Below are positions 20,768 to 58,038 of a DNA stretch of 64,000 nt, piece by piece. The notes below the pieces were generated by a model. It was not told where the DNA came from. It did not search any database and saw only the letters and a program-made list of their open reading frames with translations. The stretch covers positions 2,432,001-2,496,000 of the forward strand of contig OZ001293.3 in the NCBI GenBank assembly GCA_963921275.4. Reading direction: 5' to 3'. A program made the translations under genes and the position numbers. Each line of letters begins with the position of its first letter. Positions within the stretch are counted from its first letter, which is position 1. This DNA is from an uncultured Hormoscilla sp. GTDB taxonomy: Bacteria; Cyanobacteriota; Cyanobacteriia; Cyanobacteriales; Desertifilaceae.

Positions 20768-21804
20768 TAGGTCAGAATAGCGCTCTTATAGGTCACAATG
20801 AGCTATAATAGGTCAGAATAGATATATTCTCGGTCAGAATATACTTATTTCGGTCGGAATAGCGCTATAATAGGTCGGAATGGATGGGGTCGAGCCGGGA
20901 ATCGCTTCCCGACCCTCCCTTGAGGAACCGGACTTGCGATTTTCACCGCATCCGGCTACTGGGTACTAGGCCCTTTTCATAGGTAGACTTAATAGGAATT
21001 ACTTCCGTTAGCCCTTGCCGCCTGTCTTTTCTTCCCTTTCCTGGTTTAGCGAGTGGTTGTTCTGATAACCGTTAGTATCACCATTTTCAAGTCAGTTTTA
21101 CCAGTTATCCATACCTTATCCTCCACTTGCGTTTCGGATTAGTTCCGTGGCTTTTTAGGATTACTCATTCCAGCAGCTTCCTAGTATCACCGACCCACGT
21201 CAGCGCTGGCTACCCAGCATCATCTACATTACTGTAGATGTTATCCCAGGAATTACCCCGGGCATTCGCTTCTTGGGCCATCCCTCCCCCCGTGGCTTGC
21301 GCTTAACATCTAACTTGTCCTGATGGACAGCACACGAGAGGTTACTTCGTTCCCTAACAACATTTCGCGATACCTTTAGGTCCACACTATACCCCGGGAG
21401 CTATTTGAGTACTATATTAGCCAGAGTCTAAAACTAATACTAGCTACCATTTCCTTTTTAGGCCAGCGCATATAGCCTTATTTCGCTGGTTCCTTATAAC
21501 GAGGCTTGCACATGTTTGCCTGCTCTAACCTTGGATATCTTTTTTAGCGGCGTCACCGGCTTAGGCTGCCAGTTATCCTACATTTGAGTCCTCGCTTAGC
21601 ACCACGATAATGTCGCTTCGTAGCACCGAGGACCGGTGTCACCCCCGTATTTGGGGGGAGGGGAATTTAACCCCCATGCGGTCAGAGTTCCCGGCTAATG
21701 AAACCGGGCTAGCGTTCCGTGTTTGACCACGTTAGGCTAGAACGAATCGCACAGACTTATTATAGGTCAGAATAGCGCTCTTCTGGATCAGAATCGATTT
21801 ATTC
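20768..21804. repeat. Degenerate 20-21-bp tandem repeat (taggtcagaat-N10), split by intron A1
   Basis: About 8 units; one unit taggtcggaat|agacttatta is interrupted at 20881/21753. Confidence 0.85.
20882..21752 (-). mobile_element. ORF-less group II intron, family A, copy 1 (871 bp)
   Basis: Minus strand begins GTGCGATTCGTTC; domain V AGCCGGATGCGGTGAAAATCGCAAGTCCGGTTC; domain VI hairpin with bulged A; no RT ORF. Confidence 0.95.
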
Positions 21805-21900
21805 AAAGTCTTCACCCCCAACCCCTAACTTTCCACCAAGCCGTGTATCCTAGGTAAAGAAGACCAACCCCTAAAAAATCTATCCCTTACAGAAGATATT

Positions 21901-22347
21901 ATGGCTACATTTAACGTAGATACACCAGCAGAACTATCCGATGCCATTACCAATTCCGCGAATAACGGTCAGGCAGATACCATTAACATCACGGGAGATA
22001 TTACCCTGACCGGGTTGCTACCCCTTATTGAAGAAGACGTCCAACTCACGATAAATGGGAACGACAACACCATTGATGGCAACGACCAATACCGGCTGTT
22101 TTTTGTCAGAAGCGGTACAGTCAATTTCAATGACCTGACCAATTTGGAGTCTCTCCGGCTGGACGGCAACCAACTGACTGGCAGCATCCCGACGGAGTTA
22201 GGGAACACCCTCATTGGTGGCTCGAGAAAGGATCACCTCTATGGTGCCCTGTTTGTCTTTAACGGGACCGTCAGAATGACAAACTCTCAGTATAGCATAA
22301 AAAATAATTTTATGTATCAGAGACGAAAAAAACCTAAATATCCGTAA
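21901..22347 (+). pseudogene. Mosaic ORF: beta-helix adhesin-like N-terminus, one LRR unit, RTX fragment, IS-derived tail
   Basis: 22141-22206 matches the LRR cassette of 24060-24820; TLIGG..DHLYG is RTX-like; the tail after about 22290 is IS982-end sequence. Confidence 0.7.
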
Positions 22348-22404
22348 AGTCTAAGTAGGTAATCCATATTTGTTAAGATTTTTTAAATAGGTCGCAACTT
22401 GAGT
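22290..22404. mobile_element. Diverged, truncated IS982-family end
   Basis: Aligns by eye with 27353-27462 (taaagtctaagtRggtaat...taggtcgcaactt) and ends in the terminal inverted repeat. Confidence 0.8.
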
Positions 22405-22748
22405 TATGATAGACCTAGGTGCGACTCGTTCCGGCGTAAGTCAGAAATATGACGATAGTCGGGCTAGTATTACACCAGCACCTCTACAGAAAAATACAAG
22501 AGAAACCAAAAAATGAAGCATAATACCAATGCCAACACCATGGTAGTAGTGGATGCCTCCCTAGAAAACTACCAGCAGCTTATAGACGGCATCCGGCCTG
22601 GGGCCAAATCTTTCCTCTTAGACCTTCGGTCCGATGGCATCAAACAGATCGGCGAACTTCTCCGACAGCATCAAGAAACAGAGGTTCTGCACCTACTTTC
22701 CCACGGCAGCCCTGGCTGTCTGTATCTGGAAAACTCCCAACTGAGTTT

Positions 22749-55307: not shown

Positions 55308-55395
55308 ATTCTGTATTGTTAATTGTTAGTTGTTAGTTGTGGGTTGTTAGTTGACCACTGACTTGGCCGCTGACCACTGGCCGCTGACAGTAGGT

Positions 55396-56373
55396 CTACT
55401 CTTTGCTGCGAGCAATATCGATCGCCTCCCCAGCAGATATTCCTTCATTTTGATAGCCAAAATACCATAGAGTCGCAGCCGCCTCAACACTACTAACAGT
55501 CTTAGTGGGCTGGAACAAATTCGTATAACCTAAAGACCGGCGGATATTTGCCTTTTCCCCATTCTGAAAATCTGCCTCTACTGCCCGTAAGGATTTTGGG
55601 TCAATCTTAGCAGCATCTTGGAAGCCCCAGGTTTCCTCCACCGTATCGATCGTAGCAGTAGGTAAAGCTCTACGGATATCCAGAGGCACTTTCCAGAGAA
55701 TCATTTCGGCGCGGGTAAGGGGTGTATCTGGGCGAAACCAAACTACTGTCGCATCACCAGTTAACCTGCTCGGCAGTATACCCGCCTCTGCTAAACCTTG
55801 AATTAGAGGGAAATCCGGGTCAGTACGCGGCACATCCTGAAAAACTGGTTTAGCAGATTTTGACGTTGGCGGACGAATTTGTTTACCTGGGTTGTGAGCA
55901 TACATTTTATTATTAGCCACAACCAGCCAACGGACGTACTCCCGGCGCGTCACTGTTCGATTCGGTTCAAAATCAGGTGAAGTTAAAACCTCCAGTTCCA
56001 TCAAGTCGGCCACGTACTGACGCAATGGCTCCGGAATTTCCTTCTCCGACCAGGTGCTTGAGGCCGTTTCAGTAGTCTCCCCTAGTCGATTAGGACTCTC
56101 TTCTGGCTGTTTCGGGGCATTTAACTGGCTGTTCCTAGCAATAGGATCGGGCTCTATTGTGGAATTATTCTGGTCGGACGTCTGGGCTATTGAAGTCGCT
56201 GCTGGCGGACTCCCAGTCGAGGGATTGGCAGAGGGTCCGGGGTCTGCTGCCAAGGATTGTTCAACCGCCTTACCAATTTCACTATTAGCACAGGCAGTCA
56301 ATGAAGTAGTCAGCAGGCAAGCAGCAATAACAGCAAGAACTGGTTTCATCCTGGCAACACAGCTGGACATCAT
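55396..56373 (-). CDS. S-layer homology domain lipoprotein
   Basis: Lipobox LTAC, FEPNRTVTRRE and FRPDTPLTRAE SLH motifs. Confidence 0.85.
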   Translation of the reverse strand: MMSSCVARMKPVLAVIAACLLTTSLTACANSEIGKAVEQSLAADPGPSANPSTGSPPAATSIAQTSDQNNSTIEPDPIARNSQLNAPKQPEESPNRLGETTETASSTWSEKEIPEPLRQYVADLMELEVLTSPDFEPNRTVTRREYVRWLVVANNKMYAHNPGKQIRPPTSKSAKPVFQDVPRTDPDFPLIQGLAEAGILPSRLTGDATVVWFRPDTPLTRAEMILWKVPLDIRRALPTATIDTVEETWGFQDAAKIDPKSLRAVEADFQNGEKANIRRSLGYTNLFQPTKTVSSVEAAATLWYFGYQNEGISAGEAIDIARSKE

Positions 56374-56762
56374 TTTCTATGATATACTCCAAACGGTCAT
56401 AAACTGGGCGATCTCCGGTAGTAATGTCATTGCGAGGGGGGGATAATTCGCCTCGGGCCTTGGAGTAACCCCTCCCCTGTTAGCGCAGCGGCGCAACGTT
56501 AGGAGCGCTAGCAATCTCCGCTTGCGGTGAGCGAAGTCGAACCGCGCGCCCTTTAGGAGATTGCTTCGGGGGGATCCCAGACCTGTTCCAGAGCTTCGGT
56601 CAGGGATTCCCCCCTCGCTCCGGACAGATTCCGGGTGCTCTTAGGGCCATATCTTGCTAGCAAAAGCGCAAGTCGAGCCCTTTGGGAGTATAGCAAGCTC
56701 CCTTCCCATTCATCAATAGGCCAAGATCTGCTAGGATTGAGCAAAATCTAGAGGATGAGCCT

Positions 56763-58038
56763 ATGGGTATTGGATGGGGTCGAGCCGGGAATCGCTTCCC
56801 GACCCTCCCTTGAGGAACCGGACTTGCGATTTTCACCGCATCCGGCTACTGGGTACTAGGCCCTTTTCATAGGTAGACTTAATAGGAATTACTTCCGTTA
56901 GCCCTTGCCGCCTGTCTTTTCTTCCCTTTCCTGGTTTAGCGAGTGGTTGTTCTGATAACCGTTAGTATCACCATTTTCAAGTCAGTTTTACCAGTTATCC
57001 ATACCTTATCCTCCACTTGCGTTTCGGATTAGTTCCGTGGCTTTTTAGGATTACTCATTCCAGCAGCTTCCTAGTATCACCGACCCACGTCAGCGCTGGC
57101 TACCCAGCATCATCTACATTACTGTAGATGTTATCCCAGGAATTACCCCGGGCATTCGCTTCTTGGGCCATCCCTCCCCCCGTGGCTTGCGCTTAACATC
57201 TAACTTGTCCTGATGGACAGCACACGAGAGGTTACTTCGTTCCCTAACAACATTTCGCGATACCTTTAGGTCCACACTATACCCCGGGAGCTATTTGAGT
57301 ACTATATTAGCCAGAGTCTAAAACTAATACTAGCTACCATTTCCTTTTTAGGCCAGCGCATATAGCCTTATTTCGCTGGTTCCTTATAACGAGGCTTGCA
57401 CATGTTTGCCTGCTCTAACCTTGGATATCTTTCCTAGCGGCGTCACCGGCTTAGGCTGCCAGTTATCCTACATTTGAGTCCTCGCTTAGCACCACGATGA
57501 TGTCGCTTCGTAGCACCGAGGACCGGTGTCACCCCCGTACCTGGGGGGAGGGGAATTTAACCCCCATGCGGTCAGAGTTCCCGGCTAATGAAACCGGGCT
57601 AGCGTTCCGTGTTTGACCACGTTAGGCTAGAACGAATCGCACAGAGTCAAGAAAGTAATTACTGCATGGATGCTTGGTATTGCTGGTGCTGCAACGATCG
57701 CCGGTGCGGCCCAAGCCCAATCAGCCAATACTCAGCCTGTAATCATCTCACCAGCACAGGCTTTCAATCGAGCTATGTTCGAGAACTCCGGCACCTACTT
57801 TGAGAACCGTTCCCTGCGGCGACAAGCCAACTCCATCTTGGGCATTGGAGGTTTCCCGGAAAATCGCCTCACCCGCGACGCCAAGCTAGTTAACCTGGTG
57901 TATCGGGACGTACTCAGGCAGCAGGTTTCTAGCACCCCACTCATTCGCATACGGGATCTGAGAAATCCCTTCGACAGCACGGTGGGTAACCCTGTGAACC
58001 AGGAACCAGGGCCCATCGGGCAACGCCGTAGTGTTTGA
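56763..58038 (+). pseudogene. Small secreted cyanobacterial protein interrupted after codon 3 by antisense intron A3
   Basis: Removing 56772-57642 gives MGIRVKKVITAWMLGIAGAATIAGAAQA, a signal-peptide-like start in frame with ORF 57670-58038. Confidence 0.8.
56772..57642 (-). mobile_element. ORF-less group II intron, family A, copy 3 (871 bp)
   Basis: Appears identical to copy 2 by eye. Confidence 0.95.

Follow-up and report, generated by a model that had tools for sequence, protein, structure and literature searches.

Recently mobile group II introns without open reading frames at imperfect target sites in an uncultured Hormoscilla sp.

A 64,000-nucleotide (nt) stretch of the genome of an uncultured Hormoscilla sp. 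(GenBank assembly GCA_963921275.4, contig OZ001293.3, positions 2,432,001 to 2,496,000; hereafter the window) carries three copies of an 871-nt group II intron that lacks an open reading frame (ORF), together with a diverged family member of 834 nt. It is likely that these introns belong to an ORF-less, non-autonomous family, which borrows the reverse transcriptase (RT)/maturase of other introns and reverse-splices into DNA at near matches to its exon-binding site 1 (EBS1). The four introns are located as follows.

20882..21752, minus strand: intron copy 1 (871 nt, ORF-less), intergenic, inside a repeat array with a period of about 21 nt; five derived transitions
22749..23619, minus strand: intron copy 2 (871 nt), antisense within the 5′-terminal DUF4347 domain of a large surface-protein gene (plus strand)
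56772..57642, minus strand: intron copy 3 (871 nt), identical to copy 2, antisense after codon 3 (MGI/RVKK) of a secreted-protein gene
44528..45361, plus strand: 834-nt ORF-less intron, sense, inside tetratricopeptide repeat (TPR)/glycosyltransferase paralogue B; borders taken from the uninterrupted paralogue A

Identity and recent mobility of the 871-nt intron

Copies 2 and 3, separated by 34 kb, did not differ at any of their 871 positions. Copy 1 differed from both at exactly five positions, all of them transitions on the intron (minus) strand, namely GG to AA at intron positions 102-103, C to T at 144 and GG to AA at 209-210 (window coordinates 21651, 21650, 21609, 21544 and 21543). In a three-way alignment including 100-nt flanks, identity ended at the borders given above. 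Beyond them the flanks were unrelated, indicating that neither a target duplication nor a larger duplicated segment accompanied the copies; the bases common to all three flanks numbered only one to three per border (TCT before the intron and A after it). Terminal inverted repeats were likewise absent from the three aligned sites. These results confirmed an earlier sequence-only reading of the window with respect to the size, coordinates and minus-strand position of the three copies, the identity of copies 2 and 3, the five transitions and the absence of target duplications. Its description of the intron as recently active was borne out in the sense of recent mobility, which is supported by copies 2 and 3, identical in sequence and each flanked by unique DNA.

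At intron positions 144, 209 and 210, the 834-nt intron and two relatives from other Hormoscilla genomes (loci L055 and L078, described below) carried the state of copies 2 and 3. Since the relatives share this state at three of the five positions, copy 1 is derived and not the parent of the other copies. Four of the five differences form two tandem doublets (21543-21544 and 21650-21651), which read CC to TT on the plus strand and GG to AA on the intron strand. Tandem CC-to-TT changes are a classic UV-type signature; deamination of the cDNA is another possible cause.

Searching the window with the 871-nt element by blastn returned the three copies and one diverged copy at 44528-45361, and no match to the intron was obtained in plasmid and E. 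coli sequence collections. Two other kinds of element were considered and rejected: a transposon or miniature inverted-repeat transposable element, as inverted ends and a target duplication are lacking, and a segmental duplication, as the flanks are unrelated beyond the one to three shared border bases, which are part of the target preference.

EBS1 and target sites

The EBS1 loop of the window introns and the exon ends (intron-binding site 1, IBS1) paired with it are located as follows.

21424..21429 (copy 1), 23291-23296 (copy 2) and 57314-57319 (copy 3), minus strand: EBS1 AGACUC; the loop covaries with the 5′ exon in relatives
21753..21758, minus strand: IBS1 of copy 1, AAGUCU; five of six pairs with EBS1
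23620-23625, minus strand: IBS1 of copy 2, GGAUCU; four Watson-Crick pairs, one G-U pair and one mismatch
57643-57648, minus strand: IBS1 of copy 3, GACUCU; five of six pairs with EBS1
44848..44853, plus strand: EBS1 UGCACU of the 834-nt intron; six of six pairs with the exon end AGUGCA (44522-44527)

All mismatches of the 871-nt copies fell in the distal half of the site, at positions -4 to -6; UCU at -3 to -1 and A at +1 were invariant at the three sites. A random site would show at least five of six pairs, with G-U allowed, with a probability of 15/1024 (0.0146), and the probability that all three sites do so by chance is about 3e-6. The L055 and L078 introns had EBS1 sequences and targets different from those of the 871-nt intron. 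The loop of the L055 intron (GUCAUC) formed six of six pairs with its exon (GAUGAU), counting one G-U pair, as did the loop of the first L078 intron (CUCAUA) with its exon (UAUGGG), again counting one G-U pair. For a second, RT-encoding intron at L078, five contiguous pairs (UCAAG with CUUGA) were identified by eye from the alignment. At least five pairs were thus found at seven of the eight insertion sites examined; the exception, L036, is considered below. The loop sequence differs among all four lineages and in every case matches the exon of that lineage (five, six, six and six of six pairs), indicating that AGACUC is the correct EBS1. The assignment of EBS1 to 21424-21429 in the sequence-only reading therefore held, the loop changing together with the 5′ exons in relatives, and so did the exon ends AAGTCT, GGATCT and GACTCT and their imperfect pairing, with one mismatch per site. 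Because the pairing is real but imperfect at every 871-nt copy, we infer that the copies were inserted at ectopic sites by retrotransposition and not by homing to a cognate site.

Borders and host genes

The 871-nt borders are supported by three independent lines of evidence, namely by the joint within the DUF4347 domain at copy 2, by the MGI/RVKK junction at copy 3 as compared with homologues and by the spacing of repeat units at copy 1. The interrupted genes begin as follows.

22513..22748, plus strand: 5′ part of the copy-2 host gene (N-terminal half of DUF4347); resumes at 23620
56763..56771, plus strand: start of the copy-3 host gene, codons 1-3 (MGI; ATG GGT ATT); resumes at 57643

In the copy-2 host, the 78 residues before the intron matched positions 1-69 of the Pfam DUF4347 profile, and the residues after it matched positions 73-127, beginning with the third residue; the split codon gives the remaining residue. 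Excision of exactly 871 nt joins the two matches with three residues between them. The gene runs on into leucine-rich repeats (LRR), cadherin repeats and RTX-type repeats, including ten 72-nt tandem LRR units (23983-24930) and 300-nt cadherin-repeat units (25132-28647). At about 23777/23778, at a run of C, the DUF4347 match changes frame, positions 73-127 being followed by positions 128-164 in the next frame, which reflects either a frameshift or a sequencing error. A gene for a DDE transposase (26465-27289, minus strand) lies between the cadherin-repeat ORFs 23811-26540 and 27497-28927, and these look like a single interrupted gene. A DDE transposase gene or fragment was also observed at 29850-30233 (plus strand). 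As read from its sequence, the copy-2 host is a pseudogene that was hit several times, unless the frameshift is a sequencing error. With the frameshift and an insertion sequence (IS) element also present, the intron represents just one lesion among several in this decaying gene.

Copy 3 splits the signal-peptide region of a small gene after codon 3. Past the intron the gene continues with RVKKVITAWMLGIAG..., i.e. the protein reads MGI, intron, RVKK. Nine relatives of this protein were found in the protein database, including named Hormoscilla proteins, and six of them (137-140 amino acids, aa) were aligned. Identity to the window sequence over the alignment was 76-88%; protein P0002 reached 94% by BLASTP. 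All six aligned relatives start with MG[IM]R without interruption, P0002 and P0003 reading MGIRVKKVITAWML, and they can be regarded as empty sites at the protein level. P0001, the database entry for the protein of the window itself, has 122 aa and begins at an ATG inside the gene (57670).

Copy 1 lies between two units of a repeat of about 21 nt, consisting of GGTCRGAAT and about 12 variable bases, often with TATAAT. The array spans 20770-20881 and 21753-21800 and thus flanks the intron on both sides. Six exact matches to the repeat were found in the window, all of them flanking copy 1 (1.2 expected), and the spacing of the units around the intron fits only the 871-nt border. A scan around copies 1 and 2 found seven promoter-like sites, compared with 4.8 +/- 2.3 in shuffled sequences, i.e. 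no excess, and no terminator-like sites were detected around these two copies.

Copies 2 and 3 lie antisense in coding sequence and therefore cannot be spliced from the mRNAs of their hosts, as had been claimed for two of the copies. The designation of the intron as an antisense gene disruptor, made in the same reading, was correct in so far as copies 2 and 3 split genes in antisense orientation. The role that it implies was not borne out, as the host of copy 2 is otherwise decaying and copy 1 is intergenic; gene disruption is a consequence of insertion and has no demonstrated role.

A fourth family member on the plus strand

The diverged copy aligned with the 871-nt element over 44528-45357 at 72.6% identity (blastn). 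It lies in one of two tandem TPR/glycosyltransferase-9 genes, which are 75-97% identical in blocks; paralogue A (41114-43360) is uninterrupted and paralogue B (43683-46983) carries the 834-nt intron. In the alignment of the paralogues, ...GGAAGUGCA is the end of the 5′ exon, GUGCG forms the first bases of the intron and ...CUCGACCCCGACU its last, and the 3′ exon starts with a G, giving CAG at the codon that is CAA in paralogue A. A TAA stop (near 45473) follows 37 codons past the intron junction, and more stops are found from codon 375 or so onwards, as the homology passes into another frame (ORFs 45543-46508 and 46498-46983). By its reading frames, paralogue B is a pseudogene, whether or not the 834-nt intron splices. 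A frameshift near 46500 and an extra insertion of TPR length were also observed in this paralogue.

The sequence-only reading had missed this fourth member when it treated the minus-strand position of all copies as a feature of the family. Three of four members on the minus strand are not a bias, and GC skew within the 64-kb window changed sign, giving no replichore signal. The shared orientation can hence not be taken as a sign of replication-fork-dependent insertion, as had been suggested: the fourth member lies on the plus strand and the skew is uninformative. Ectopic group II insertion events often use fork-dependent priming. The candidate intron-encoded proteins (IEPs) described below have HNH domains, so that priming of this kind is not required here.

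Ribozyme features and class

All four copies in the window start with 5′ GUGCG, which fits the consensus GUGYG. The Rfam model RF00029 (domains V-VI; gathering score 40) gave 44.4 bits for each of the three 871-nt copies (minus strand) and 47 bits for the 834-nt intron (45283-45360, plus strand); its consensus end (..CCCcAu) stops 1-2 nt before the true junction. The domain V elements are located as follows.

20926..20957, minus strand: domain V of copy 1, showing the AGC triad, a bulge of two bases and a GAAA loop; domain VI is next, to 20882
22793-22824: domain V of copy 2, RF00029 match
56816-56847: domain V of copy 3, RF00029 match
45286-45317, plus strand: domain V of the 834-nt intron, RF00029 match

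The usual 3′ end of a group II intron is AY, and 7-8 nt separate its branch A from the 3′ splice site. In the present family (3′ ends at window 20882-20894 and 45349-45361), domain VI forms a helix in which one A is unpaired; this A is the ninth base from the end of the intron, with 8 nt after it. RNAalifold analysis of four sequences gave plausible helices for domains I, V and VI, which constitute a partial model only. Domain V also matched the model of plastid ndhA/ndhB domain V (30.8 bits, E=6e-5, below the gathering score). Among the Rfam D1-D4 models, a match was obtained to D1D4-2 only, below threshold (22 bits, gathering score 36). We propose that the family is IIB-like and of a chloroplast-like (CL) lineage; the candidate IEPs are of the TeI4h type. 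A scan for gamma columns gave several gamma-like columns, none of them usable.

Relatives in Hormoscilla

Relatives were drawn from a domain V pattern scan of genome contigs, which returned at least 82 stretches, mostly from Actinomycetota and other phyla; the pattern is too generic, being common to introns of many phyla, and none of the stretches listed came from the genome of the window. Two ORF-less relatives came from Hormoscilla. The intron at L055 (3097-4076, Hormoscilla sp. SP12CHS1) is 980 nt long and contains an extra insert of about 100 nt. The first intron on the minus strand of L078 (Hormoscilla sp. GUM202) carries a gene for an IS630-type transposase. This insertion (about 4498-5670 of the locus) lies inside domain I, has a 331-aa transposase ORF on the opposite strand and is flanked by TA; a GC-rich block of short repeats is also inserted near the 5′ end of this intron. 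Both relatives were 60-71% identical to the 871-nt intron and agreed with it in the position of the EBS1 loop and of the 3′ end. The ORF-less region, from about position 640 to domain V, could be aligned across the 871-nt, 834-nt and L055 introns, with 68-74% overall identity. This shared ORF-less architecture suggests that the ORF was lost only once, and long ago, in the family.

In SP12CHS1, one domain V/VI sequence recurred at contig ends in eight or more copies (L036, L044, L046, L064, L074, L075 and L076). Their 3′ flanks differ, and this multi-copy intron family breaks the assembly. The same strain has a match to the Rfam model CRISPR-DR28 (L037, 1345-1368, 36.6 bits), which lies some 1 kb downstream from an intron copy. 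A search of one literature library found no paper combining "Hormoscilla" and "group II intron".

Candidate reverse transcriptases

The longest open frame on the intron strand of the 871-nt intron comprises 58 codons. A set of 47 IEP-like ORFs from the loci retrieved, 35 of them with the motif Y[AVC]DD, gave no match at E<=1e-3 when compared with the whole window by tblastn, and the Pfam RT domain was found in none of the 67 window ORFs scanned (of 82 ORFs of at least 90 aa).

A protein search was also carried out with a 50-residue N-terminal piece of the IEP from the RT-encoding L078 intron. It matched 77 proteins, of which 11 (clusters) are assigned to a contig of 6,879,066 nt, the length of the contig to which the window protein P0001 is likewise assigned. 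The 11 clusters of intron RTs are thus probably encoded on the chromosome of the window itself. P0019 (596 aa), P0041 (591 aa) and P0046 (554 aa) are of full length and contain RT, maturase and HNH domains and the YADD motif; P0019 matched the Thermosynechococcus elongatus TeI4h RT (PDB 6ME0) over its whole length with E=6.5e-107. The existence of a trans-acting RT/maturase elsewhere in the genome, as put forward from the sequence alone, is in this way supported indirectly.

Proposed mechanism and alternatives

In the proposed mechanism, an intron copy would be transcribed on its own strand, and the intron RNA would be folded and spliced with the help of an RT/maturase that a different group II intron encodes elsewhere on the chromosome. 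The ribonucleoprotein so formed would reverse-splice the intron RNA into DNA where the EBS1 loop AGACUC meets a near match, and the RT would then copy the inserted RNA into DNA. Ectopic retrotransposition of this kind would ignore the direction of host transcription. Insertion blind to host transcription would explain the antisense position of two copies within coding sequence, in which they would be plain insertional mutations. Mobilisation in trans, the choice of IEP, the retrotransposition route and the present activity of the copies we infer from these sequence features.

Several observations weigh against this mechanism or against parts of it. None of the 47 IEP-like ORFs matched the introns by tblastn with better than E=0.05, and no ORF remnants such as those of TeI3 introns were found. 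A cognate IEP-encoding intron with a matching ribozyme was not present among the relatives listed. The only RT-encoding relative seen, the second L078 intron, shares just short stretches, parts of domain I, with the family. The evidence that IEPs and introns reside together is indirect, consisting of the agreement at 6,879,066 nt. L036 showed no EBS1-IBS1 pairing at the homologous register. A search of every family member for EBS2, as a complement to exon positions -16 to -6, found no site fitting all of them; a candidate at intron positions 253-262 forms 6 bp at copy 1, 6 bp at copy 3 and 5 bp at the first L078 intron, and misfits copy 2 (3 bp) and the 834-nt intron. A column scan for EBS3 yielded a single EBS3-like column; it lies at position 52 within a hairpin loop, away from the expected place, and was not usable. 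Positions 209-210 fall in a motif that is nearly invariant across the family, GCUAGGAAAG, so that copy 1 may be impaired or dead through its GG-to-AA change there. Finally, the usual AY end is absent, the 871-nt introns ending in AUCC and the 834-nt intron in GACU. The relatives end in AGCC (L055), AUCC (L078, as in the 871-nt intron) and UAAC (SP12CHS1 copies), and in most family members the penultimate base is C instead of A. The atypical 3′ end is a deviation within the family and no ground for excluding it from the group II introns.

The lack of both an IEP and ORF remnants inside the intron would also be expected if it moved without a canonical IEP, by self-splicing and with the aid of a free-standing host RT or maturase, as has been speculated for C.te.I1. 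The ORF-less architecture common to the 871-nt, 834-nt and L055 introns, by which the lineage would have been ORF-less for long, fits this idea, and one such independent bacterial intron is named in a review (PMC4424553). The intron-type RTs with maturase and HNH domains, which are very probably encoded on the same chromosome, argue against it, as does the statement in the same review that bacterial ORF-less introns nearly always share the genome with related IEP-encoding introns (PMC4424553). We consider movement without an IEP unlikely.

The complete identity of copies 2 and 3 over 871 nt at a distance of 34 kb, in a region rich in repeats, IS elements and paralogues able to recombine, might alternatively be due to gene conversion between immobile relics, or the copies might have been spread by DNA-level recombination and not through an RNA intermediate. 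The similarity of all three copies, however, stops exactly at the 5′ GUGCG and at the 3′ end, with unrelated flanks and with neither inverted repeats nor duplications, and each flank pairs with EBS1 far above chance. Gene conversion would explain the identity, but not the arrival at three unrelated sites, and a relic origin is accordingly judged rather improbable.

Co-option of the antisense copies, e.g. as regulated switches or as sources of antisense RNA silencing their hosts, appears very unlikely. Two of the three copies do lie antisense in coding sequence, and copy 3, only 9 nt into its gene, parts the promoter and start codon from the body. The host of copy 2 is decaying, however, with a frameshift and an IS element, copy 1 is intergenic, and the 834-nt relative is sense-oriented and also located in a pseudogene. 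Homologues of the copy-3 host in related genomes are without the insertion, indicating that the interrupted state is recent and not conserved. To our knowledge, moreover, there is no way for an antisense group II intron to be excised from DNA. An assembly artefact, in which a repeat was pasted into several places or collapsed, has a negligible probability: a consensus-polished repeat would look identical, but the copies have unique flanks on both sides, which join seamlessly into DUF4347 (copy 2) or into the N-terminus of the homologues (copy 3), and copy 1 has five substitutions of its own.

Beyond mobilisation in trans by borrowed RTs, it is possible, though doubtful, that the family is an old, self-perpetuating lineage similar to short interspersed nuclear elements (SINEs), which lost its ORF once and left no remnants of it, diversified to about 60-74% identity and still gives rise to identical copies by way of distant RTs. 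Such a lineage would maintain several EBS1 specificities across related symbiont genomes and use RTs from only distantly related introns. It would contradict the view, expressed in the 2015 review, that ORF-less derivatives are rare in bacteria and short-lived (PMC4424553).

Comparison with known systems

The window element is real and of an already known kind, and the known mechanism is unchanged by it. The closest comparison is with T. elongatus, in which "driver" IEPs from TeI4 introns mobilise 17 TeI3 introns that lack ORFs; the latter share 85-100% identity with the ORF-containing TeI4 introns and retain N- and C-terminal ORF remnants (Mohr, Ghanem and Lambowitz 2010, PMC2882425). The Hormoscilla introns resemble this TeI3/TeI4 system (CL/IIB1) in the cyanobacterial host, in multi-copy, near-identical ORF-less introns, in EBS sequences that vary among members and match their own exons, and in full-length IEPs with RT, maturase and HNH domains, here probably in the same genome and with one of the TeI4h type (PMC2882425). 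The IS element inside the L078 relative has a parallel in TeI4g (PMC2882425). In contrast to TeI3, no ORF remnant and no close ORF-containing ribozyme relative were seen here, and all three copies have a target mismatch, with two of the three lying antisense in coding sequence (PMC2882425).

According to a 2022 survey, CL-type introns and ORF-less introns have expanded in some cyanobacteria, and the ORF-less ones show a moderate bias towards the lagging strand, with a score of 2 to under 5 (Miura et al. 2022, PMC8919778). As in ectopic insertions of Ll.LtrB, insertion took place at a partial EBS/IBS match regardless of host transcription, the route being presumptive in the present case (PMC8919778). 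The 2015 review considers ORF-less introns rare in bacteria and nearly always found alongside related IEP-encoding introns (PMC4424553). C.te.I1 of Clostridium tetani is likewise an ORF-less bacterial group II intron; unlike C.te.I1, which is single-copy in a genome without an IEP, the intron described here is multi-copy, and IEPs are probably present in the genome (PMC4424553).

ORF-less introns that borrow the protein of another intron are the bacterial model for the possible origin of a shared splicing apparatus and of non-autonomous retroelements. The introns in the window landed in already decaying genes, which fits a symbiont-type genome under relaxed selection. Beside Thermosynechococcus, the window adds a second cyanobacterial example, with clear recent movement, insertion at imperfect targets and a cost to genes, as a secreted-protein gene was split after codon 3.

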